From Gammaproteobacteria bacterium (lineage in GTDB: Bacteria; Pseudomonadota; Gammaproteobacteria; UBA1113): a stretch of 39,624 nucleotides of DNA. The notes under the pieces are model-generated. The model saw nothing but the letters and a program-made list of their open reading frames with translations, did no database searches and was not told where the DNA came from. The translations under genes and the position numbers were made by a program. Positions 1 through 36,584 of the stretch are shown here, in pieces. Location of the stretch: contig VFJV01000020.1 in the NCBI GenBank assembly GCA_009885895.1, positions 1 through 39,624 on the forward strand, read 5' to 3'. Positions within the stretch are counted from its first letter, which is position 1, and each line of letters opens with the position of its first letter.

Positions 1-1
1 A

Positions 2-895
2 GTAGAATTATCTCTGCATGCCTTTTTTCCCATAGGACAACAACACGGCGCTTTTTCATCCTTAACCGCCATTATTGCCGGGTTCTTGGGTATTGAACTC
101 GCGGGCGTGCACATCAATCATTTAAGAAAACCCGGCGAAGATTATGCCAAAGCGCTCGCCATGGCCGTGCCTTTTGTGCTCATCACCATGGCTTTTGGCG
201 CATTAACGATTGCCATGATTTTACCGCAGTCCAATATCAATATAGTCAATGGGGTTATTGAAGCTTTCGATAATTTCTTAGCCGTGTATCATGCGCAATT
301 CTTGTTACCTGTAGTAGGGGTCATGATCTTGGTAGGCAGCATGGGGGGTATGATCAGTTGGGTCATATCGCCCGCTAAAGGGCTGTTACAAGCTGGGCAC
401 GATGGCTTTTTGCCACAATTTTTTCGTCATACGAATAAAAATCAGGTGCCGCATCGCTTGCTGATAACACAGGCCGTTTTAGCCAGCGTTATTTCAGGTG
501 CTTTTTTATTGTTTCCTAGCGTGAATGGTGGTTATTGGCTATTAACGGCACTGAGTACTGAATTATACCTACTAATGTATGTATTGCTGCTAATAGCGGC
601 TATTTACCTTAAGTGGAAACGGCCACAGCAAATACGGTCATTTCAATTGGGTAAAGGGCTGGGAGGTACTGTGTCAGTGGCTATTTTGGGGCTTATAGGC
701 TGTGGCATTGCCTTAGTGATAGGCGTCATTCCGCCTAGCGATATCCCAGTGGGAGACCCCCTACGCTATGCCATTATTTTCTTGATTGGCCTTTTTGTTT
801 TTGTGGCACCCGTGATGTTGTTTTATCGCTTTCAAAAAAAAGGCGCCTCGAAAAAGGAGCAAAATGCTGTATTTTCTGCTATCATTGAACCCTAA
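2..895 (+). CDS. APC-superfamily amino acid permease, C-terminal part (gene starts left of the window)
   Basis: The frame of ORF 86..895 stays open back to position 2 (VELSLHAFFPIGQQHGAFSSLTAIIAGFLGIELAGVH...). It has several hydrophobic helices and a GFLGIELAG segment typical of APC/GadC-like transporters. It ends in a short charged tail. Confidence 0.75.
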   Translation, partial: VELSLHAFFPIGQQHGAFSSLTAIIAGFLGIELAGVHINHLRKPGEDYAKALAMAVPFVLITMAFGALTIAMILPQSNINIVNGVIEAFDNFLAVYHAQFLLPVVGVMILVGSMGGMISWVISPAKGLLQAGHDGFLPQFFRHTNKNQVPHRLLITQAVLASVISGAFLLFPSVNGGYWLLTALSTELYLLMYVLLLIAAIYLKWKRPQQIRSFQLGKGLGGTVSVAILGLIGCGIALVIGVIPPSDIPVGDPLRYAIIFLIGLFVFVAPVMLFYRFQKKGASKKEQNAVFSAIIEP

Positions 896-907
896 TATTC
901 AGAATGA

Positions 908-1876
<969 letters not shown>

Positions 1877-1933
1877 GTGTTTTTAGGTGAAAATACCACC
1901 AACTTAGTGAATTGAATTAACTTGTGAGAAATT

Positions 1934-2167
1934 ATGTCCAAAGAAGATTGTATAGAAATGGAAGGCGTTATAGCAGAAACCCTTCCCAATACCACGTTTA
2001 GAGTAAAACTGGAAAATGGTTACCTTATAACGGCCCATATTTCAGGAAAGATCCGCAAAAATTACATCCGCATTTTAACAGGCGATAAGGTTACGGTTGA
2101 GTTAACCCCTTATGATTTGACTAAAGGACGTATTATATTTAGGCATAAAGAATCGCCTACGGGATAG
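1934..2167 (+). CDS. infA: Translation initiation factor IF-1
   Basis: Near-identical to the enterobacterial IF-1 pattern as I recall it ([29 protein letters not shown]...[33 protein letters not shown]). Confidence 0.95.
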
Positions 2168-2248
2168 CCTTAAACGGTATACAGTCTAGGGTGTGAGCCT
2201 TAGGGATGATTCAGAAAAAATCACCCCTGAAATAAGCCCTGCCTTACA

Positions 2249-2277
2249 TTGACTTTGCTGAAAATTTTTATGATAAT
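2249..2277 (+). promoter_or_regulatory. Sigma70-like promoter TTGACT-N17-GATAAT upstream of the small membrane protein gene
   Basis: TTGACT at 2249-2254, a 17-nt spacer, then GATAAT at 2272-2277. It lies about 80 nt upstream of the ATG at 2356. Confidence 0.45.
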
Positions 2278-2355
2278 AAGCCGTTATCGCGTTTTATAAA
2301 GACGCGCGTGTGTTCTTTGAGTGCAAAGTTTATATTATCTTTTAAGGAGTTTATT

Positions 2356-2724
2356 ATGCGAGAAGCCATGAAAAATACTGCTATTTTTATAATTTCTTAT
2401 GTTGTCTTTATGATCCCTACCTACATATTGCCTTATTTTGGATCCAACTCTGCCGTAGTGAGCGCGGTTGCGGCCAAAGCGCATTTCATCAACCCGGCAA
2501 TGATTATCCATTTAGCCTTTTTGGCTGGATTGATTATCCTGGCGCGGCTTAGGGGTAAGGCCATAGATAAACAATGGCTAATAACGTTTCCTATTCTCGC
2601 TACTGTTTTTGATTTTGTCCCTTTTTTAAGCTGGATTCCATTAGTGCCGACGGTTATGCATTTGCTGGCCATTATTTTAGGTGTAATAACGGTAAAAGAG
2701 AAATCCCCCAGCCAAGTAGCTTAG
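2356..2724 (+). CDS. Small integral membrane protein, unknown function
   Basis: ORF 2308..2724. I prefer the internal ATG at 2356 because AAGGAG lies 7 nt upstream. It has 3-4 hydrophobic helices. A 10-bp hairpin (2730-2765) follows the stop. Confidence 0.6.
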   Translation: MREAMKNTAIFIISYVVFMIPTYILPYFGSNSAVVSAVAAKAHFINPAMIIHLAFLAGLIILARLRGKAIDKQWLITFPILATVFDFVPFLSWIPLVPTVMHLLAIILGVITVKEKSPSQVA

Positions 2725-2729
2725 TGCGT

Positions 2730-2765
2730 ATCATCCCTCGTTATTATTGAGTAATGAGGGATGAT
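2730..2765 (+). terminator. Stem-loop after the membrane protein gene (ATCATCCCTC ... GAGGGATGAT), no clear T-tract
   Basis: Perfect 10-bp inverted repeat read directly from the sequence. There is no U-run, so terminator function is uncertain. Confidence 0.3.
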
Positions 2766-2860
2766 CATCTTGCCCACCTGCTGAAGCATACCTAGTTTAT
2801 TTTCGGGTTTCTATATGCAACAACAGAAGCGGGCATGCAAGCACAGTTTTCAGCCTTAAA

Positions 2861-3022
2861 AAATTTCGATATAGCGCATGGGCACATGAAATTAACACTC
2901 CAACCTTAGTGATAGGCAGCGATCAAGACTTAATTTTTAATAAAGCGTCGATCAAAGCTTTAGCTCATGCTATCCCTAACGCACAATACCATTCTTTCTC
3001 TGGATATCGCCAGATAAAATAA
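2861..3022 (+). pseudogene. C-terminal relic of an alpha/beta-fold hydrolase gene
   Basis: A short open frame translates to KFRYSAWAHEINTPTLVIGSDQDLIFNKASIKALAHAIPNAQYHSFSGYRQIK*. This matches the usual hydrolase C-terminal block (P-x-L-V-I-x-G-x-x-D ... IP-x-A ... G-H), but the catalytic His position reads Tyr and no N-terminal part is present. Confidence 0.4.
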
Positions 3023-3107
3023 AACTGTTTTCAACCTTATAGCCATTAAAATCAATGCTCTATCTCTTTGAAAAATATGCCAGGTAAAATGCCCCTCTTC
3101 ATTTTTT

Positions 3108-3140
3108 GTTAATAATGATTTAGCTGAATTGCGATAGAAT
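3108..3140 (+). promoter_or_regulatory. Possible degenerate PmrA-type box plus -10 (GTTAATAAT-GA-TTTAGCTGA-N7-TAGAAT)
   Basis: It has the same 9-2-9-7-6 geometry as the strong box at 38088. The first repeat is good and the second is poor. Confidence 0.3.
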
Positions 3141-3250
3141 ATATCCGTTATAACTAAACATAATAGATCATTAGCGGGGTAAGTGTGGGATTATTCGACG
3201 ATTTATCAAACGTCAATTACAGGTAGTGTGTTTTTCTAATGATGCAAACG

Positions 3251-3272
3251 ACCGGCAAAGATAATTGTCGCT
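3251..3272. promoter_or_regulatory. 22-bp imperfect palindrome ACCGGCAA-AGATAA-TTGTCGCT (operator-like), overlapping the TTG start at 3265
   Basis: It lies inside a 28-nt string (3250-3277) whose exact reverse complement occurs at 39517-39544. The half-sites are AsCGrCAA. Confidence 0.5.
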
Positions 3273-4020
3273 CAATAACGATTTGCCAAAATATGGAGGA
3301 ACTTTTACGAGAAAGTTTAATCAAAACGTCTTTATTAATAAAGTTATAGATTTTTTTAAAAGAAGTGAATATCTTGCTGAAGGGGCCTGCGCGGCTTTAA
3401 CAGTTGATTGGCTTGAATTTAAAATACAAAATTTAGGTAATGACTTTCCGTATAAGGATGATCGTTTGAAAGACCCGAAGGTAATAGACTCTATTATTCA
3501 GATCCAAGCCTATTTGAGATTACGCGATGCCCCGCTTTCAGAATTCATCTCTAATTTTGGAGTTGAAAGACAAGAAGCTCCGGAATCTTATACGGATTTC
3601 ATAAACACACTGAATGCAGGTATTTATCTAATCCACTTTGAATATAAAAGTCTAGATGGGATTAATGGTAATCATGTTGCCGTTTGTATGAGCTATGATA
3701 AAAATGGAAAACATCATATTGAACTTTTTGATGCTGCACGCGGAGATGCGAAATTTTCTTTAAATGATCAGAATACTTCGCAAGCAAGAGAGTGGTTGAC
3801 TGCTTATTTTAAATCATACGCAACATTTTCTACGATTGGCATCTCATCTTTTTCGCTCAGATGGGATAATAGTTGTTCAGATGTTGCAAAAATGTGTAAA
3901 CAGACGAATGATATCATGTTATCTCTTGTTGCACAGAATCCACATGGGTTTTGGAGTAATAGTGAGGCGGCGCACAACCAGAGCACAGCTCCAGCAGAGG
4001 ATTATACTCCCCAGTCTTAA
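3265..4020 (+). CDS. Orphan protein with papain-fold Cys-His-Asp arrangement resembling YopT/AvrPphB (peptidase C58); candidate secreted effector
   Basis: 251-aa ORF with a TTG start. Cys42 sits in EGACAALTVDWL, His137 in GNHVAVCM and Asp156 in ELFDAARGD. This is the C-H-D order, with an F-D-x-x-x-G block after the His as in C58 enzymes. The region is AT-rich. The protein has no signal peptide. Confidence 0.5.
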   Translation: MSLNNDLPKYGGTFTRKFNQNVFINKVIDFFKRSEYLAEGACAALTVDWLEFKIQNLGNDFPYKDDRLKDPKVIDSIIQIQAYLRLRDAPLSEFISNFGVERQEAPESYTDFINTLNAGIYLIHFEYKSLDGINGNHVAVCMSYDKNGKHHIELFDAARGDAKFSLNDQNTSQAREWLTAYFKSYATFSTIGISSFSLRWDNSCSDVAKMCKQTNDIMLSLVAQNPHGFWSNSEAAHNQSTAPAEDYTPQS

Positions 4021-4023
4021 AAC

Positions 4024-4860
4024 TTATAGCCCATGGCTAAAACAGGATCTTCGCACCCCAGAAATATTAGCCAGATGAATTGCATATTTTTTGATTTCGT
4101 CTTCAATAAATTGACATTCTTCCTCAGAAAAAGGGTGGGTTTCCTGATATGCTTGAAACAGTCTAGGATTATAGGCTCGCTGTATATTTTTAACAGGAGA
4201 CATATCAGCATTCTCATGAACACTGGAATTTGAAAAACTTAATATCCTATTACTAATAACATGGTACAGGCGCATTTTCTTTACGAGGGCCTCATACTTT
4301 TCGCCACTTAGATCAGCTATCTCGGAAAATTTAAGGGCTGTTTTTTCATAAGCAGCTATACCGTTTCTCCAGGTACAAGTTGCAAACCACTCTATAAGTT
4401 CTATTTTCTCATCTAAAGTGGCTGTTTCAAACGCGGAGTTCATGAAAGAGTCTGCGGCATAGTAAGAATTATATTTTTTTGCAATTATTTTTAACGCGGC
4501 TTCTTTTTCTTCCGTCTGTGCGGACTCGAAAGTTTGAATAAAGAGTACCAGACCCATTATTTTATCATAAGAGGTTACTTGAAAATTTATAGGCAAAGTA
4601 ATAGTTGCATTTGGTCTTTTTTCATTAAAACCATTCACTGCTTTTTTAATTTCAGGGCTAGTGAACAATATTCTTTCCCAAAAATCTAAAAACAGGGGTG
4701 ACCTAAAAAAAAATTCAAAATCAGTGTTGTTGTGCGCTTCCACTAATACAGAAATAACGTCCTTTTTTATTAGTTCTTTTATTGCCTCTATGCATCCCTC
4801 TTCATTCGTTTTACTTGAACTGTCTATAATGAGCTCTATAAGTCTATCTTTATTTTTCAT
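4024..4860 (-). CDS. Hypothetical 278-aa soluble, probably helical protein; candidate effector
   Basis: Long ORF in an AT-rich islet. GAAGGGG lies 5 nt upstream of the ATG. It starts 34 nt downstream of the alaS stop on the same strand. I recognise no motif. Confidence 0.65.
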   Translation of the reverse strand: MKNKDRLIELIIDSSSKTNEEGCIEAIKELIKKDVISVLVEAHNNTDFEFFFRSPLFLDFWERILFTSPEIKKAVNGFNEKRPNATITLPINFQVTSYDKIMGLVLFIQTFESAQTEEKEAALKIIAKKYNSYYAADSFMNSAFETATLDEKIELIEWFATCTWRNGIAAYEKTALKFSEIADLSGEKYEALVKKMRLYHVISNRILSFSNSSVHENADMSPVKNIQRAYNPRLFQAYQETHPFSEEECQFIEDEIKKYAIHLANISGVRRSCFSHGL

Positions 4861-15220: not shown

Positions 15221-15745
15221 TTAACCTATTGCATCGTAAGTAATGTCGTCACGTCTATCTTGTGAATACGCATAATCGTCATTACCCGAGACAGCTGGCT
15301 TTTCCGAACCATAGCTTACTGTACGCATTTGGTTGGCATTAACGCCCATCATGACCAAACGTTGACGCACAACAACCGCACGGCGTTGCCCTAAACCGAT
15401 ATTGTATTCACGGCTGCCTCTAGGATCGGCATTGCCCGCAATTAAAATACGTGCATTAGGATGTTTTTTTAGATAGTTGGCGTTAGCTTGCAGTATAGAC
15501 ACATACTCTGCTTTAATGGCATCGCTATCGAAATCAAAATAGACGCTGTTCTTCTCTATCCCTAGGAGTTTAGCCATACGTGCATCTTGGCTATCGTCAA
15601 AATCTGGATTAGTGCCTACACCATCCGCCACGGGTTGATCGCCACCAATAACGCGCGATGTATCATTCGTATCTGGCTTGGATGAACATGCGGCCAATGC
15701 CAGAGCAATCGTTGCCAATACTACCCATTTTAAACTTGTTCTCAT
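15221..15745 (-). CDS. pal: Peptidoglycan-associated lipoprotein Pal
   Basis: Lipobox LALAACSS and a C-terminal OmpA-like domain (VYFDFDSDAI...GNADPRGSREYNIGLGQRRA). Confidence 0.92.
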   Translation of the reverse strand: MRTSLKWVVLATIALALAACSSKPDTNDTSRVIGGDQPVADGVGTNPDFDDSQDARMAKLLGIEKNSVYFDFDSDAIKAEYVSILQANANYLKKHPNARILIAGNADPRGSREYNIGLGQRRAVVVRQRLVMMGVNANQMRTVSYGSEKPAVSGNDDYAYSQDRRDDITYDAIG

Positions 15746-15766
15746 TGTGAAATACTCCCCATTTAT

Positions 15767-17080
15767 TTAACCTTTGTAGGGCGACCAAGCCGGTGCTTGA
15801 GCATCCCCAGAAACTTCAGGCAAACGGATATTCATTTGCCCATTACTTGAAACCATACCCAACATACGCCGCCCGCCGAAGGTCGTAGAATACACTATTA
15901 TCCGACCATTAGGTGCAGGGCTGGGCGACTCTATAAAGCTTCCTTGCGTTAAGATCTGCATCGTGCCTGATTGTAAATCATAAATGGCTACATTAAAACC
16001 CTTATTATCTCTATGCAGCAAAGAAATTTTTGAAGCATTGCCCGGTAAATAGTTTGCGCTGGCATTATAGCTACCTAAATAAGTGATGCGCTGGATTTGA
16101 CCCGATAAATCAACGCTGTAAATTTGAGGAGCCCCACCGCGATCGGAAGTAAAGAGTATGGATTGACCATCGGGTGCCCAACTGGGTTCTGTATTGATGG
16201 CAGCATCATTGGTTAGCCGTTTTAATTGGCCATTGGCTAAATCAATAGTGTAGATATTAGGGTTAACATTGCCCATTGATAAGGCTGCAGCTAAAAAGCG
16301 GCCATCGGGAGAAAATGAGGGGGCGCCATTGATGCCAGAAAAACTGGAAATTAAACGGCGTTTTCCTGTCGCCACATTCGAGGTAAATATTTGTGGTAGT
16401 TTAGTTTCAAAAGAGACATAGGCAATAAAACGACCGTCGGCAGACCAATCGGGCGACATGATGGGCTGTGTAGAGCTTAACAGCGGTTTAGCATTATGAC
16501 CATCTACATCGGATACCATTAGGGAATAGCGCTTATGGCGGCTATTATTCGGCATGGATTCAACTTTAACATAGGCTAAACGTGTGGAAAAAACACCTTT
16601 TTCACCTGTTAATTTTTGATAAATAACATCGCTAATATGATGTGCCAAAGCGCGCATTTCAGTATTGGCGACTGTATAAGATTGTTGGGTTAAAATGGTC
16701 GGCGTACTTTCTGTGCCATGGAAAAGATCCAGTAAGGTCATATCGACCTTAGTTTGCCCATTGGCTACGGAGGTAGCATTGCCTATTACCAGGTTGTCTA
16801 ATCCTAAGGTTTTCCATAACTCGCTACTGACCGCATCGGCAGCGTGCGGCTTTTGTGGCAAATGGTTTGGCGGCATCACTTGAAATTGTCCGGAGTGACT
16901 CAAATCGTTTCCAATTATGCGTGCAATATCATTGGGATTATTTTCATCGAAGGGAACGATGGCAATAGGGATACTGCGCACCACGCCACGCGTAATGTCT
17001 ATGTCTAAAGCAGCCACTGCGCGGTTTGCAAAGGATAAGATGAACCCAGCAATTAAAATCCATAGACTGTATTTTTTCAT
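15767..17080 (-). CDS. tolB: Tol-Pal system beta-propeller protein TolB
   Basis: I prefer the ATG at 17080, which gives the signal peptide MKKYSLWILIAGFILSFANRAVA. Repeated SPDG/APDG propeller blades are visible. Confidence 0.95.
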   Translation of the reverse strand: MKKYSLWILIAGFILSFANRAVAALDIDITRGVVRSIPIAIVPFDENNPNDIARIIGNDLSHSGQFQVMPPNHLPQKPHAADAVSSELWKTLGLDNLVIGNATSVANGQTKVDMTLLDLFHGTESTPTILTQQSYTVANTEMRALAHHISDVIYQKLTGEKGVFSTRLAYVKVESMPNNSRHKRYSLMVSDVDGHNAKPLLSSTQPIMSPDWSADGRFIAYVSFETKLPQIFTSNVATGKRRLISSFSGINGAPSFSPDGRFLAAALSMGNVNPNIYTIDLANGQLKRLTNDAAINTEPSWAPDGQSILFTSDRGGAPQIYSVDLSGQIQRITYLGSYNASANYLPGNASKISLLHRDNKGFNVAIYDLQSGTMQILTQGSFIESPSPAPNGRIIVYSTTFGGRRMLGMVSSNGQMNIRLPEVSGDAQAPAWSPYKG

Positions 17081-22290: not shown

Positions 22291-24195
22291 ATGTTACAAA
22301 AACACGATGAACAAAAATACTTTTTTTCTGATCACATTCAAAAAGAGAATCTTGAATATCTTGAAAGCCTTGTCCCTTATATGCCAGGCCCAATCTATTG
22401 GAAAGATAGAAATAGCGTTTATTTGGGGATGAATAAACCAGCATTGAAATCGTCAGGATTAATACATTTTTCTGATTTTGTTGGGAAAACAGAGTATGAT
22501 TTGTGGCCACAATTTGCCGATAAAATAATCAAGAATGATAAAATAGTAATCCGCACAGGCCAAGCTCTCCAGGAAGAAGGCGCAATTATGTTGCCTAACA
22601 AAGAAGTCCGATATTATACCGCAATTAAAGTTCCACTACGGGACGTAAATAACAACATTATAGGTATAATAGGGAATTATATAGACATTACTGCGCAAAA
22701 AGAAATGGAACAATTGAAAGTTGAGAATAAAATTCAGAAAAATATAGAAAAAGAACAAGAAAAATTCACCCAGCTAGCCAATAAAGTGGCGCACGATATA
22801 CGCTCTCCAACCAGCACTTTAATGATGATCTTAGATACCTGCACGCAGCTTCCGGAAGACAAGCGTATTTCCCTCAGAGATGCGGCTATTACTATAGGCG
22901 ATATTGCAAATAATCTATTACACCACTATCAACAAAGACAAACGGGAATAGTAACAGAAAACGAAGAGCGTAAACCTATCTTATTGTCTACCGTGTTGAT
23001 GGAATCCTTAAGTGCCAAAAAATACCAGTACGCAAATTTACCCCTTAAATTTGAGGCCCATTTTAAAGACGACAGCCATTTTGTGTTTATTAAAACACAC
23101 TTAACTGCCTTTAAGCGGACGATCTCAAACCTCATCAACAACGCGGTCGATGCCTTTGAGCATCGTCCCGGACAGGTAGACTTAGGCCTAGAAGCCAATA
23201 CCGAATGGGTTAAGATCGTCATTCAAGATGCGGGTAAAGGCATGTCGCCCGAATTGATCGCTAAAATCATGGATAAAACGGCCATAACCGAGGGCAAACA
23301 ATCCGGGCATGGCATAGGAATGGCGCAGGTGTGGGAAACTCTGGACAATAACCACGGAAAAATGCATATCTCATCTCTTCCTGGTAAAGGCACCAGCATC
23401 ACCCTTACTTTTCCTAGAGCAATGGCACCCGATTGGATTGCAGAAGGAATTGTCCTTGGCGAAAATGATACGGTCATTATTCTAGACGATGACACCTCCA
23501 TACACGGCGCTTGGTGCTCAAGATTTGAAGGCATCATAAAAGAACATCCCTCCGTGCAGCTTAAACATTTTCATTACGGCCAAGAAGCTTTGGATTTTAT
23601 TCAATCTTTAACGGCAGACGAAAAAAGCACTATTTTCCTGCTCTCCGATTACGAGTTGTTAATGCAAGAACTCAATGGCTTGGACGTTATAGCCAAAAGT
23701 AAAATAGACCGCTCTATTTTAGTGACTAGCCACTATATAGACCCATTGGTTCAAAATAAGGCGGCTAAAACCCGTACCAAAATTTTACCGAAGCAATTGG
23801 CTTCTGAAGTGCTGATTACCGTAATCCAAGGCGCGGCAATGGGCTTAACCAAGCGCGGCACCGAAAAAGTAGATGCCGTCATCGTCGATGACAATAAAGA
23901 ATTTATAAATGTGTTTATACTGTATGCTTTTGATGACGATGAAATAACGGAGGAATACACTAATCCAGAGCATTTTTTGGAGAATCTAAACAAGTACCCG
24001 AAAGAAACTCGGATTTATCTGGATAATAACTATGGCACGTCGAAACTAACCGGTTTAGACGTAGCAAAAACATTGCATGATCTGGGTTATACACAGCTGC
24101 ATCTCTTATCCGGGGAAGTCTTTAAGGATGCTGATATCCCAAGTTACCTTAGGCTTGTAGGGAAAAATAAGTTGGAGTCGCTTAAAAAAGGCTAA
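22291..24195 (+). CDS. PAS-domain hybrid histidine kinase with two C-terminal receiver-like domains
   Basis: PAS-like N-terminus (PGPIYWKDRNSVYLGMNK...). H-box VAHDIRSPTSTL, N-box ISNLINNAVDAF, G1 QDAGKGMS and G2 GHGIGM. The first receiver reads IILDDD...LLSDYEL...LVTS...ILPK and the second reads VIVDDN...IYLDNNY...LLSG...LVGK. Confidence 0.8.
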   Translation: MLQKHDEQKYFFSDHIQKENLEYLESLVPYMPGPIYWKDRNSVYLGMNKPALKSSGLIHFSDFVGKTEYDLWPQFADKIIKNDKIVIRTGQALQEEGAIMLPNKEVRYYTAIKVPLRDVNNNIIGIIGNYIDITAQKEMEQLKVENKIQKNIEKEQEKFTQLANKVAHDIRSPTSTLMMILDTCTQLPEDKRISLRDAAITIGDIANNLLHHYQQRQTGIVTENEERKPILLSTVLMESLSAKKYQYANLPLKFEAHFKDDSHFVFIKTHLTAFKRTISNLINNAVDAFEHRPGQVDLGLEANTEWVKIVIQDAGKGMSPELIAKIMDKTAITEGKQSGHGIGMAQVWETLDNNHGKMHISSLPGKGTSITLTFPRAMAPDWIAEGIVLGENDTVIILDDDTSIHGAWCSRFEGIIKEHPSVQLKHFHYGQEALDFIQSLTADEKSTIFLLSDYELLMQELNGLDVIAKSKIDRSILVTSHYIDPLVQNKAAKTRTKILPKQLASEVLITVIQGAAMGLTKRGTEKVDAVIVDDNKEFINVFILYAFDDDEITEEYTNPEHFLENLNKYPKETRIYLDNNYGTSKLTGLDVAKTLHDLGYTQLHLLSGEVFKDADIPSYLRLVGKNKLESLKKG

Positions 24196-24344
24196 AAATC
24201 AAATGTGTGGAGTATACACTCACAAGAGTTGGTTTTTAGGGTAGGCGCCGAGTCCTCGAGCAACAGGAGTGTAGTATTCTACATGACTGTTGCGAGATGG
24301 GCGAAGGCAACAACCCCTAAAAATCAAATGTGTGGAGTATACAC
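24192..24344. repeat. Structured palindromic intergenic element bounded by an exact 28-bp direct repeat (MITE/REP-like)
   Basis: CTAAAAATCAAATGTGTGGAGTATACAC occurs at 24192-24219 and 24317-24344. The inverted pair is TTGGTTTTTAGGG (24229-24241) / CCCTAAAAATCAA (24315-24327). An inner hairpin is GCAACAG (24260-24266) / CTGTTGC (24287-24293). A related element lies at 36496-36584. Confidence 0.7.
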
Positions 24345-27300
24345 CAGCCTGACCGCCACATGCTGCCCCAATTCATCCAACAAGGCATCGCTGGGATTAA
24401 TCTGAAAGGATTTATCTAAAGCCAATTCCGCTTTAGCCGTTTGGGTAGAAAAAACAATGCGCGTTGAGGTCGAGCCTTGATTATATTTTTCTAAAATACT
24501 CTGAATGGCTTGTAATTTCTGTGGCGAGCACTCTTTCTCGTGAAGGGCTAATTCTATATACTGCACATGAATTTGCCTAAAATCTTCTAAGCCCCATAAT
24601 TTTCTAGCCCCCATACGCAGCGCACCATTCCATTCATCTATGTTAGCATCGCCTTCTACTACCAATAAACAATCTTTTTGAATGAGAGAGCGCAATTCTT
24701 GATATAGGTCTGGGAATACGGCCACATCGATCTGCCCTGTTTCATCCGCTAACTTTACAATCGCCATGCGTTCCTGTTTTTTAGTCATGAGCACACGCAC
24801 ATCCAATACCCAGCCCGCCACCTTTTGGTAGTCGCCGCTCGATAAGGTTGCTATGCGGGTTTTAAACACCGAATCTAATTCAGAACGGTAGGCGGTGATA
24901 GGAAGTTTTGAAAAATAAAACCCAAAGCTGTTTTTTTCTGCCTGTAGGCGTTGCCTTAAATTCCAGGTGGGTACCATCGTATAGCTTATTTCAGGTTGTT
25001 CTTCTAATAATGCAAATAGACTGCCCTGCTTTCGGCTTAATTCCTGAGCTTTTTTTTCTGCCAAAGAAAGGGCTGTAGGCAGGCTTGCTAATAATACGGC
25101 GCGTTCTACTCCAAAATCATCACAGGCACCACTGTTAATTAAGGTTTCAAAAACCCTTTTATTGGTTTTCTTTAAATCTACAGAGGCGACAAAATCATAG
25201 AATGAAGAAAATTGTTTTCGATTTTTACGCGCGTGGACTATGGCCTCTATAGCCGCCTCGCCCGCGCCTTTTAATGCCCCCAAGCCGTATTCTATAGCTT
25301 GATTCTCATTGACTGTGAAGGCATACGTACTGCTGTAAATAGACGGCGGTACTACATTTAAACCCATTTGCCTGCACTCGTCGATTAACCCGGCCAATTT
25401 ATCCGTATCCTGCAATTCAGAGGTCAATACCGCCGCCATGAATTCGGCTGGATAATGCGCCTTCAACCAAGCAGTTTGATAGGCGAGTAATGCATAGGCT
25501 GCCGAGTGCGATTTATTAAAGCCGTAGCCTGCAAATTTTTCCATTAAGTCAAAGATGGCATTAGCTAATTTTTCATCTATATCGCGCTGTTTAGCACCGA
25601 CAATAAAGATTTCTCGTTGTTGAGCCATTTCTTCTGGCTTCTTCTTACCCATGGCGCGACGCAATAAATCAGCACCACCCAAAGTATAGTTTGCCAACAC
25701 TTGCGCTATTTGCATAACCTGTTCTTGATATAAAATAATACCGTAGGTGGGTTTTAATACCGGCAATAAATCGGGGTGTTGGTAGGCTACTTCGGCAATA
25801 CCCTGTTTTCGGTTGATAAAGTCTTCAACCATACCCGATTGCAATGGGCCAGGCCTAAATAAAGCCACCAAGGCGATGATATCTTCAAAGCAATCTGGTT
25901 TTAAGCGTTTCACGATATCTTTCATCCCACGCGATTCCAACTGAAATACGGCCGTGGTTTGACATTTTTGTAATAAGGAAAACGTTGCCTCATCACTTAA
26001 ATCGATCAGCGCGATGTCTAATAAAGTGCCTTGGTTTTTACGTTGCTGCGTGTGTATCGCTTCTAAAGCCCATTTGATAATGGTTAAGGTTCTTAATCCT
26101 AAAAAATCGTATTTTACCAAACCCACCGCTTCTACATCGTCTTTATCGTATTGTGTTACCCAAGCATCGCTGCCCGCTTCACAATAGATTGGTGCAAAAT
26201 CACTGATCTGCGAGGGTGCAATCACCACCCCACCCGCATGTTTACCGGCATTGCGCACAGTACCTTCTAATACCAAAGCAAGTTCAATTAATGCACGTAC
26301 ATCGTCTTCTTCTTCATAGCGTAGGCGTAATATTTCTTCTTGTGCTAAGGCTTTTTCCAAGGTAATCCCCAATTCAAAGGGAATCAGTTTTGCCAGGGTA
26401 TCGACAAAACCATAGGGATAACCCAATACACGCCCCACATCGCGTATAACAGCTTTTGCTGCCATCGTGCCATAGGTGATTATTTGCGACACACTGTGAC
26501 GACCATAACGGCTAGCGACATAGTCTATAACCCTATCGCGTCCTTCCATACAAAAATCTACGTCAAAGTCGGGCATGGAGACACGTTCAGGGTTTAGGAA
26601 ACGCTCGAATAATAAATCATATTTTAAAGGATCTAGATCGGTAATGCCTATGCAATACGCTACCAAAGAACCCGGGCCCGAGCCACGTCCAGGCCCTACC
26701 GGCACATCATTGTTTTTTGCCCAGTTGATAAAATCGGCTACAATTAAAAAATAACCGGTATAACCCATACCGTTGATCACCGATAATTCGCGCTCTAAGC
26801 GTTCATCATAGTCTAGATGCTGTAAATTTCCATCATTAAACGCCGTAATGGCAGCCCAGCGATCGGCTAAACCTGTTTTAGCCATATGCTCCAGATAACG
26901 CTCCGTCGTAAAACCCTCTGGTATAGGGTAATGCGGTAAATGATATTCCCCCAAGGCAATGTGTAGATTGCAGCGCTTAGCAATTTCAACGCTGTTGCTT
27001 AAGGCCGAAGGACAGGCTTCAAATAATTTTCCCATCTCTACTTCGGTGCGCAAATATTGTTGAGGCGTATAATGGCGCACGCGTTTGGGATCGGCTAGCA
27101 ACGATCCTTCACTGATACACACTCTTGCCTCATGGGCTTCGTATTGTTGAGCCGTTAAAAAACGCACTTTGTTGGTAGCCACTAGAGGAACTTGGCATAT
27201 TGCCGCCAATTGAATGACTTCGTTTAAATAATAGTCTTCATCGGCAACGCCTATTTTATGCACTTCTAGGTAGTAGCGATCGCCAAACACGCTACGCCAA

Positions 27301-27803
27301 TAGAGAATGGATCCTTTAGCCGCAATCAAATCTTTTTTTAAGATGTGCTGTCCCACATCGCCCGTTATGCCGCCGGAGAGTACGATAAGCCCTTCATTGC
27401 GTGTTTTAAGCCAATCAAGTGCTATACCCGGTTTACCTAACACAACTTGACCTTGATTGTACGCACTAGAAACCAAATGTATTAAATTACGGTAACCGAT
27501 ATTATTTTGACACAATACCGTTAAATTGGTGGGGACTTCAGACTGCTTTGATTTTGCTTGTTTACTCTCAGTACTTAAAGTGGGATAACAGTCTATATCA
27601 CAACCTATGATCGGCTTAACGCCATTTTTCAATGCTTTATTATAGAATTTAATCGTCGCAAATAAATTATTTAAATCGGTGATGGCCAATGCGGGGATCT
27701 TCATTTCAGCACAGGTTTCAAATAGCGCATCCAAATGACATAAGCCGTCTTTTAAAGAATAATCCGTGTGTAAATTAAGATGCACATAGGAAGGTGGTTT
27801 CAT
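24324..27803 (-). CDS. dnaE: DNA polymerase III alpha subunit
   Basis: 1159 aa with a PHP domain start ([15 protein letters not shown]), a polymerase core ([21 protein letters not shown]) and an OB-fold tail. ATGA overlap with the rnhB stop. Confidence 0.97.
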
Positions 27804-29605: not shown

Positions 29606-29697
29606 TGGAGGAGAGGGCGGGATTCGAACCCGCGTGGAGCGTAAAGCCCCCGACCGATTTCGAGTCGGTGCCGTTATGACCGCTTCGGTACCTCTCC
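29606..29697 (-). tRNA. tRNA-Ser (anticodon CGA), long variable arm, CCA apparently encoded
   Basis: The reverse complement reads GGAGAGGTACCGAAGCGGTCATAACGGCACCGACTCGAAATCGGTCGGGGGCTTTACGCTCCACGCGGGTTCGAATCCCGCCCTCTCC-T-CCA. It has a 7-bp acceptor stem, anticodon loop CU-CGA-AA, the T-loop GGTTCGAATCC and a class II variable arm. Confidence 0.9.
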
Positions 29698-29706
29698 ATT
29701 AATAAT

Positions 29707-30414
29707 CTAAAGTATTCCTAACCGTGTAGACGCCTTTTTATAGAACTGGATGACATCGCCTAAATCGAGTCGAAAACGATCTTTATCGTAAATTTCACCG
29801 CTTTGTATATCCCATAAACGGCAGCCATCTAAGGTAAATTCATCACCCAATAACAATTCTCCCTGATAATACCCAAATTCCAGCTTAAAGTCGACTAAAT
29901 CAAAGCCCGCTTTTGCAAAAAAAGGCTTTAAAATGTTATTGACGCGGTGGGTTAATACCTTCATGCTCGCTAAATTTTCTTTGCTTGCCAACTGCATCAT
30001 AAAAATATGATCTTCAGTGATAATCGGATCTCCCAAAGAATCGTCTTTCAAGAAAAACTCAAAGATAGGTGGAGCAAATACTCTACCCCGCTCTATTCCT
30101 AAACGCTTGCAAATACCGCCCGCAGCTCTATTGCGCACGATGCATTCTATAGGAAGCATATCTAAGCGTCGTACAACGATTTCCGTATCGCTTACTTTTT
30201 TTAACCAATGCGTCTTAATGCCATTTTCAGCCAACATCGCCATGATAAAGGCATCAAAAGCGCAATTAACACGACCCTTTTCCTCTAAAACAGCATGCTT
30301 CGCGCCATTGCCCCCGGTGGCATCATTGCGAAATTCAACCAGCAGTTCAGAAGGCTTTCCGATATCATAAACCGTCTTGGATTTTCCCTTATAGAGCGCT
30401 AGGCGTTCACTCAT
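29707..30414 (-). CDS. purC: Phosphoribosylaminoimidazole-succinocarboxamide (SAICAR) synthase
   Basis: LYKGKSKTVY..., LPIECIVRNRAAG and LVDFKLEFG motifs. Length is 235 aa. Confidence 0.95.
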   Translation of the reverse strand: MSERLALYKGKSKTVYDIGKPSELLVEFRNDATGGNGAKHAVLEEKGRVNCAFDAFIMAMLAENGIKTHWLKKVSDTEIVVRRLDMLPIECIVRNRAAGGICKRLGIERGRVFAPPIFEFFLKDDSLGDPIITEDHIFMMQLASKENLASMKVLTHRVNNILKPFFAKAGFDLVDFKLEFGYYQGELLLGDEFTLDGCRLWDIQSGEIYDKDRFRLDLGDVIQFYKKASTRLGIL

Positions 30415-36432: not shown

Positions 36433-36495
36433 GCGGTTTCCTTAAATGGGTATTCCCCATCCTCTGATGGGCAAAGCGAAGCACACTTTTCGCAT

Positions 36496-36584
36496 TTGAT
36501 TTTTAGGGGGGGTTCCCTACACCCATCTCTTGGTGCTCAATGGCTCAGCACCTACCCTAAAAATCAACTGCTGTGAGTATAAAA
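36496..36584. repeat. Second copy of the TTGATTTTTAGGG / CCCTAAAAATCAA palindromic element family
   Basis: Perfect 13-bp inverted pair at 36496-36508 and 36555-36567 enclosing 46 nt, including the hairpin GGTGCT...AGCACC. The right arm CCCTAAAAATCAACTGCTGTGAGTATAAAAG resembles the arms at 24192/24317 and the reverse complement of 24209-24241. Confidence 0.65.

Follow-up and report, generated by a model that had tools for sequence, protein, structure and literature searches.

A probable miniature transposable element in the last codon of dnaE supplies the end of the gene in an uncultured gammaproteobacterium

Bacterial MITEs, or miniature inverted-repeat transposable elements, generally have TA at their termini, carry inverted repeats, are shorter than 200 bp, and give a transcript that folds into a stem-loop (PMC2229807). 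Gene ends supplied by MITEs are an already known phenomenon. We analyzed a 39,624-nt stretch of DNA (GenBank assembly GCA_009885895.1, contig VFJV01000020.1, positions 1 to 39,624; Gammaproteobacteria, UBA1113), hereafter the window, in which a palindromic element, designated as E1, lies between a sensor-kinase-like gene and the convergent dnaE gene. The E1 family matches the description of MITEs in its TA termini, inverted repeats, size, and stem-loop, and it appears to be undescribed. With a probability of roughly 85%, E1 is a copy of a non-autonomous, TA-targeting DNA transposon (a MITE) that was inserted in the last codon of dnaE and now gives this gene its last four codons and its stop.

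Several described systems resemble the E1 family. RUP of Streptococcus pneumoniae is likewise about 100-130 bp long and non-coding, with inverted ends, TA flanks, many copies, and filled/empty polymorphism (PMC2229807). Unlike RUP, which has stops in all six frames, the E1 family has one frame open throughout; the two share no sequence similarity, and no partner insertion sequence (IS) was found for the E1 family. The Correia elements (NEMIS) of Neisseria are also TA-flanked, measure 100-155 bp with inverted repeats of about 25 nt, form one long stem-loop when transcribed, and are often fused to or abut open reading frames (ORFs); the parent transposase is unknown in both families (PMC2229807), whereas their sequence and host clade are different. 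QMITE1 and QMITE2 of Coxiella burnetii share with E1 a gammaproteobacterial host in the broad neighbourhood of Legionellales. They overlap mutT, recN, ruvB, and other functional genes at the 3' end, and one copy lengthens EnhC by giving it its C-terminal residues (PMC5896051). In contrast to E1, QMITE1 is 300-400 bp long with variable direct repeats of 2-3 nt, and QMITE2 is 150-190 bp long with direct repeats of 7-11 nt and a GTAG REP (repetitive extragenic palindrome); neither is TA-specific or related in sequence to E1 (PMC5896051). RPE of Rickettsia and RU-1/ERIC are, like E1, mobile palindromes of about 100-150 bp that are able to join coding sequence, with one frame open (PMC2229807, PMC2759123). 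RPE is typically found in-frame inside genes, whereas E1 only replaces a stop and adds four codons.

At the locus studied here, a search of the window placed two exact copies of the 28-mer CTAAAAATCAAATGTGTGGAGTATACAC, at 24192-24219 and 24317-24344, 125 nt apart. No third match was present in the window at up to three mismatches, and none was obtained in 100 shuffles. An earlier note on this DNA, made from the letters alone, had described this direct repeat as holding the stop codons of two convergent genes, and each exact copy does contain one of them. The TAA of the kinase (24193-24195) lies within copy 1, and the TCA of dnaE (24324-24326, minus strand) lies within copy 2, after the codons for ...VYTPHI. 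The features of the locus are as follows.

22291-24195, plus strand: PAS / HATPase_c sensor-kinase-like gene (ORF list; Pfam PAS_4 and HATPase_c)
24192-24214, plus strand: R', a 23-nt partial copy of the right arm, CTAAAAATCAAATGTGTGGAGTA, lacking the inner CC as well as the remainder of the element
24215-24216: TA between R' and the left arm of E1, the left target TA (from the family TA flanks)
24217-24241, plus strand: left terminal inverted repeat of E1, CACTCACAAGAGTTGGTTTTTAGGG, consensus TACTCACAGCAGTTGGTTTTTAGGG (family alignment and arm BLAST)
24242-24314, plus strand: core of E1, 73 nt, with a central hairpin, GCAACAG (24260-24266) / CTGTTGC (24287-24293)
24315-24339, plus strand: right terminal inverted repeat of E1, CCCTAAAAATCAAATGTGTGGAGTA (family alignment)
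24340-24341: right target TA, the first two bases of the ancestral last dnaE codon TAT (Tyr, 24339-24341 on the minus strand; by comparison with empty sites)
24324-27803, minus strand: dnaE, DNA polymerase III alpha subunit, 1159 aa (ORF list; full Pfam domain set)

E1 thus comprises 24217-24339, a non-coding 123 bp with imperfect terminal inverted repeats of 25 nt, and is flanked by TA at 24215-16 and 24340-41. Copy 2 of the 28-mer consists of 23 of the 25 nt of the right arm, TA, and CAC, which is the Val codon of dnaE. Copy 1 consists of R' (24192-24214), TA, and CAC, which here belongs to the left arm as its first three bases. The 28-mer includes CAC in both copies because the first base of the left arm mutated from T to C. 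Judged from the alignments, 25 of the 28 repeated bases are the right arm of the element plus TA.

Both genes are intact. The C-terminus of the kinase falls in the same alignment column as that of most homologues (...LKKL*/...LKKN*); the kinase is therefore a full-length protein, and the alternative of a truncated kinase was ruled out by this alignment. The dnaE product showed 85% identity to the protein P0002 at 100% coverage. More broadly, the host dnaE is 68-88% identical to the dnaE of a handful of metagenome-assembled genomes (MAGs) and about 55% identical to that of Legionella.

The state of the site without the element was read in two relatives, L113 and L114. Both carry the same convergent kinase/dnaE pair with a 4-nt gene overlap and no element; the L113 dnaE is 88% identical to that of the window, and the L114 kinase is 75% identical. 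Their junction reads ...CTT AAA AAG AAT TAA TA CAC TAA CTT CAC CGC CAC AT..., in which a palindromic TTAA (L113, 2595-2598; L114, 1374-1377) is common to both stops, TAA of the kinase and TTA of dnaE. The corresponding junction of the window reads ...CTT AAA AAA GGC TAA-AAATCAAATGTGTGGAGTA-TA-[E1]-TA-CAC CAG CCT GAC CGC CAC AT.... The earlier note had proposed TAA-AAA-TCA, with stops 3 nt apart, as the ancestral junction. This proposal failed: the empty site is ...AAT TAA TA CAC..., with overlapping stops and no arm.

The end of the dnaE protein gave the same picture. All of the 12 closest dnaE proteins end in ...LVY*. In each of the eight loci of relatives that were read (L001, L002, and L113-L118), TAT is directly followed by a stop, TGA or TAA; L116 and L117 encode one and the same protein, so the eight loci amount to seven different sequences. 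In the window, the sense strand of dnaE reads GTG TA/T ACT CCA CAC ATT TGA, with the slash marking the end of the target TA. On the minus strand, the right arm codes for the third base of Tyr, Thr-Pro-His-Ile, and the TGA stop (24324-24338). The tail TPHI* is derived from the element. The comparison of dnaE 3' ends that the earlier note had called for thus finds that VYTPHI* is not ancestral, with TAT directly before the stop in the relatives. Its second alternative, that the element carries most of the 28-mer and supplies the C-terminus and stop of dnaE, agrees with the ...LVY* ends.

The following course of events would account for the locus. Before the insertion, the kinase and dnaE would have been convergent with overlapping stops (plus strand, ...TAA TA CAC...). 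E1 would then have entered the TA of the last dnaE codon, TAT (Tyr). The Tyr codon was rebuilt because the element starts with T. Translation of dnaE would have been extended by four codons into the arm (ACT CCA CAC ATT) and ended at the TGA of the arm. A consensus copy at the same position would encode YTLRI* (predicted by translation). When the consensus with its TA flanks was read from the left, stops were encountered after 9 and 7 codons and the third frame was open throughout (41 codons); from the right, stops were encountered after 5, 7, and 39 codons. As five of the six readings into the consensus hit an internal stop, an insertion at a gene end costs just a short tail.

We considered whether the 28-mer was instead the ancestral target, with stops 3 nt apart, that was later doubled, either when an element was inserted with a target duplication of 28 bp or through a simple tandem duplication at the locus. 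Removal of one repeat and the insert does leave two intact genes. However, in two relatives the empty site actually reads TTAA TA CAC and contains no part of the arm, and 25 of the 28 nt are the right arm of the family plus TA, which is present at unrelated loci in other genomes. The family duplicates TA only, and the dnaE proteins of close relatives all end in LVY*. Even a closer relative with GGCTAAAAATCAAATGTGTGGAGTATACACCAG and no element would carry the remnant of an earlier copy rather than a native sequence. We regard this explanation as very improbable.

Insertion of a MITE-like element is further evidenced by the family to which E1 belongs. Copies were searched for with an inner-arm pattern scan of one genome per prokaryotic species, followed by BLAST; the counts are therefore lower bounds. 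At least 21 family copies were found in at least six related uncultured gammaproteobacterial genomes: at least 18 in five MAG species, one in L114, and two in the window. Thus, the search for further genomic copies suggested by the earlier note, which had named their absence as the finding that would speak against a mobile element, returned many. At least 18 copies are full-length relatives of E1, 78-91% identical over about 129 nt (BLAST). Among the matches listed, JBIPMB bin74 has nine copies, JAJXVU BP5.bin43 four, JAJYCX BP9.bin76 three, and JAJNBM and VFJT one each; L114 and JBIPMB come from one metagenome and may represent a single organism. Many further matches to the pattern TTTTTAGGG...CCCTAAAAAYC, in Helicobacter pylori, Bacteroidota, and others, are unrelated and were not counted as family.

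The family consensus is TA-TACTCACAGCAGTTGGTTTTTAGGG-(73-nt core)-CCCTAAAAATCAAATGCGAAGAGTA-TA. TA was present at the left end of 18 and at the right end of 16 of the 19 aligned copies. Homology among the copies ends sharply at TA/TACTC...GAGTA/TA, and the flanking DNA is unrelated between copies. E1 is shorter than 400 bp and non-coding, with inverted ends, dispersed copies, and filled as well as empty sites, as is expected of a MITE. The family copies and the intact ORFs bear out the structured, MITE-like mobile element sparing both reading frames that the earlier note had proposed. The related arm that it had noticed near 36555-36584 is also real, being the left arm of a second family member in the window.

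36484-36579, minus strand: element B, a family member with a shortened core of 46 nt between the arms (BLAST; left arm 97% identical to the consensus)

Element B has TA (36580-36581) on one side and a decayed CA (36482-36483) on the other. It lies in the spacer of the yajC-secD operon, at a distance of 4 nt from the preceding yajC stop and of 51 nt from the secD start that follows; the yajC-secD spacers of three relatives are 38-76 nt long and have no element B.

Comparison of orthologous sites demonstrated that the family is mobile, as filled and empty sites differ in both directions. The dnaE site is empty in L114, yet L114 has a family copy between purC and a tRNA gene, where the spacer of the window is only 9 nt. 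In the window this tRNA (29609-29697, minus strand; 89 nt, long variable arm) lies 9 nt downstream of the purC stop and is the only Rfam match in the window. In two MAG species with collinear flanks, the TA sites that hold the copies are separated by 18 nt, and the copies point in opposite directions (L007, 2683-2811; L048, 2623-2749); the two insertions into this one intergenic region occurred independently. L007 has a second, diverged family copy 137 nt further on (2948-3076). In the empty state, the dnaE site and the tRNA site each have one TA, and L048 has a single dinucleotide (AA). Both of the insertion targets that can be read cleanly are TTAA/TA.

Many of 20 copies are located 0-10 nt from a neighbouring stop codon, and the copy in L008 is wedged between convergent genes. 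Among these 20 copies, dnaE is the only clear case with a stop inside the element. The closeness to gene ends fits the survival of gene-sparing insertions in compact genomes; targeting is not required.

Palindromic repeats at gene ends are also formed by other kinds of sequence, and E1 could in principle be a REP/BIME mobilised by RAYT, an integron attC site, or a small-RNA gene, since it is palindromic, repeated, and located at a gene end. The details do not agree with any of these. E1 has 123 bp, 25-nt arms starting with TACTC, and TA flanks, and is not a palindrome of 20-40 nt headed by GTAG/CGTC. The family copies are single and dispersed, in contrast to REP, which duplicate no TA and often form clusters, and to attC cassette arrays. 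Against a small-RNA gene, no Rfam match was obtained even at E <= 1. This group of explanations is scarcely credible.

As for the mobilising enzyme of the E1 family, we infer from the insertion into and duplication of TA that a transposase of the IS630/Tc1-mariner type may act in trans. A parallel is RUP, which has been proposed to be mobilised by IS630-Spn1, among TA-flanked bacterial MITEs (PMC2229807).

Copy 1 of the 28-mer is a truncated tandem right arm. A TA common to both links it to E1, and its fusion with the stop of the kinase falls at a microhomology, CTAA/TTAG. R' is 100% identical to 24317-24339, and its three substitutions (GTGTGG vs GCGAAG in the consensus) were present in no other family member. 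R' is not found at the empty sites of L113 and L114. The first 4 nt of R' (CTAA) may be the ancestral sequence of the kinase stop, that is, a microhomology. If the ancestor of the window read GGC TAA TA CAC, CTAA would be common to the kinase stop and the arm, and only about 19 nt would be extra.

An adjacent partial arm was observed in two of the 21 copies checked, those of the window and L114, with the same topology. In L114 (6724-6890), a full copy is followed by TA and then by about 38-40 nt of the same end with two mismatches. The partial copy breaks off at a distance of 2 nt from the stop of purC. The L114 insertion lies 5 nt upstream of a class-II tRNA (5' end); the orthologous region of the window is 29698-29709.

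How R' arose is our inference. Two origins, insertion followed by deletion and replication slippage, fit about equally well, and neither quite reaches even odds. In the former, an older copy would have occupied the same TA and E1 would have entered its flanking TA (or the reverse order), after which a CTAA...CTAA deletion would have left 19-23 nt. The junction arm-TA-arm is that expected from insertion into a flanking TA, the kinase stop and the arm each contain CTAA, the flanking TA has the A-TA-T context that is common at family sites, and L114 provides a second case of the same topology. However, two insertions and one deletion are required, tandem junctions were not found elsewhere, and the two arms are 100% identical, including the three private substitutions and the adjoining CAC. 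Nearly precise excision of inverted-repeat transposons such as Tn10 leaves a partial arm by hairpin-stimulated deletion between short direct repeats; unlike the Tn10 remnants, R' stands in tandem with an intact copy, and a mechanism of this kind would apply here only by analogy.

In the latter, E1 would have been inserted once, and its right arm would later have been copied again when replication slipped or switched templates at the hairpin. Replication would have slipped back on GTGTA, which is shared by the dnaE flank/TA and the end of the left arm/TA, and returned on TTAG, which is shared by the arm and the old stop region. The identity of R' and the right arm over 25 nt, private substitutions included, is readily explained in this manner; the T-to-C change in the left arm creates the GTGTA microhomology, and the hairpin is very stable. 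On the other hand, two coordinated template switches are required, and the repeat outcome in L114 with different microhomologies would have to be a coincidence or a general property of the hairpin. A third idea, that the one-and-a-half pattern is a footprint specific to this family, produced by end-targeted insertion beside a resident arm or by a transposition intermediate with abutted ends and TA between them, is improbable. If true, such a footprint would be unexpected for a TA-targeting cut-and-paste element.

Several observations weigh against the interpretation of E1 as a TA-targeting transposon copy with a tandem partial arm. An autonomous element or transposase with matching ends was not found in the window or the collected loci, IS-like inverted-repeat pairs of 0.7-3 kb with E1 arms were absent from the window, and a BLAST search of the consensus against PLSDB plasmids gave no match. 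At the dnaE site, R' has taken the place of the original left flank, and the TA duplication cannot be read cleanly there; the evidence for it is the TA conserved at both ends of most copies, together with empty sites that have a single TA or dinucleotide. At the left junction in L114, TA is inseparable from the first bases of the arm itself. The window is a metagenome-assembled contig, and the R'-E1 junction is known from the assembly alone. In metagenome contigs, the private arm variant AAATCAAATGTGTGGAGTATA and the abutted right-end/left-end junction, AAATGCGAAGAGTA N0-8 TACTCACAGCAG, both gave zero matches, which is weak evidence as the abundance of the family there is unknown. Among 112 collected loci, blastn-short detected no solo arm except R' of the window.

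The E1 region is strongly folded. The inverted arms described in the earlier note were recovered, with 24212-24241 pairing with 24315-24344 (30 nt, 73% complementary), as were its palindrome of copy 1, in which 24192-24213 pairs with 24218-24239 (22 nt, 73% complementary), and its inner stem GCAACAG/CTGTTGC, within 24260-24293. The RNA folding that it had recommended gave -68.7 kcal/mol (z = -7.3) on the plus strand and -53.7 kcal/mol (z = -5.4) on the minus strand, so the region is far more stable than shuffled sequence on both strands. E1 alone gave -63 kcal/mol (z = -9.0) on the plus strand and -49.7 kcal/mol on the minus strand. The alternative hairpin between R' and the left arm is much weaker (-15.8 kcal/mol).

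In an alignment of 19 copies, the consensus hairpin has 34 pairs, 22 of them in the two arm helices, and 97.4% of cells were paired. Changes on both sides were seen in seven pairs; shuffles gave 1.9 +/- 1.0, with none of 500 reaching seven, and slid controls gave one or two. An example is GCACCAG/CTGGTGC, which became GCAACAG/CTGTTGC in the window. As the compensatory changes exceed the controls, pairing in the hairpin is maintained across the family. It may serve transposition or a role at the RNA level.

A hairpin at this position might affect the two convergent transcripts. We weighed whether the element was domesticated as a bidirectional terminator, the role suggested in the earlier note, or as an RNA-stability element between the convergent genes and kept by selection. 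The hairpin is very stable on both strands, compensatory changes keep its stems family-wide, many copies lie 0-10 nt from stop codons, and processing by RNase III or an influence on the stability of mRNA has been described for other MITEs (PMC2229807, PMC5896051). However, a terminator scan of 24186-24350 found no U-run after the stem on either strand, the T-runs lying inside stems, and a promoter/terminator scan found neither a promoter nor a terminator within the element. Over 24100-24450, Rfam 15 gave no match to the element at gathering thresholds or at E <= 1. The relatives do with overlapping stops and no spacer, covariation of the stems is equally expected if transposition needs paired ends, and positions at gene ends are expected in compact genomes in which only such insertions survive. 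Domestication is thus unlikely, and so is a related possibility, that the hairpin was co-opted to insulate from each other the convergent essential genes, the stops of which used to overlap.

Taken as a MITE insertion, E1 offers a complete before/after example of a selfish hairpin element landing harmlessly in the last codon of an essential replication gene. The insertion opens no new biological question and is a clear but ordinary case. For annotators and gene callers, C-terminal tails derived from MITEs and 28-bp repeats of this type are to be expected in MAGs.

Similar ends were observed in other repeats. Zooshikella loci (L006, L019, L059, L068, L073, and others) carry a distinct MITE-like family, TA-TACCCTTCACGAATCATTTTTAGGG, in which the distance between the terminus and the GGG box is again 25 nt. 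Several distinct MITE-like families have the inner box TTTTTAGGG/CCCTAAAAA in common, and L018, L021, L023, L066, L082, and L016 (Sulfuricella, Nitrosospira, Undibacterium, and a Legionella MAG) have the same inner box with other outer arms. Sequence comparison suggests that this shared end architecture may mark a wider superfamily recognised by related transposases. The end architecture of the E1 family, TA/TAC...TTTTTAGGG, which the Zooshikella families have as well, is a handle for finding the transposase.

Unrelated palindromic elements are located in the dnaE 3' flanks of L001 (7915-7970 and 8383-8447) and L002 (13455-13625). They include a near-perfect hairpin, GAACCTGAGTTCGGGGTTTTGATC...GATCAAAACCCCGAACTCGGGTC, and a roughly 170-bp element delimited by TTAGGGC...GCCCTAA. 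The genomes of L001 and L002 seem to be rich in several hairpin repeat families. The lineage is uncultured, near Legionellales, and probably host-associated. The dnaE neighbourhood of L002, which contains a protein of more than 2240 aa without a Pfam match (1-4275) and an ankyrin-repeat protein (15689-16261), hints at such a host-associated lifestyle.

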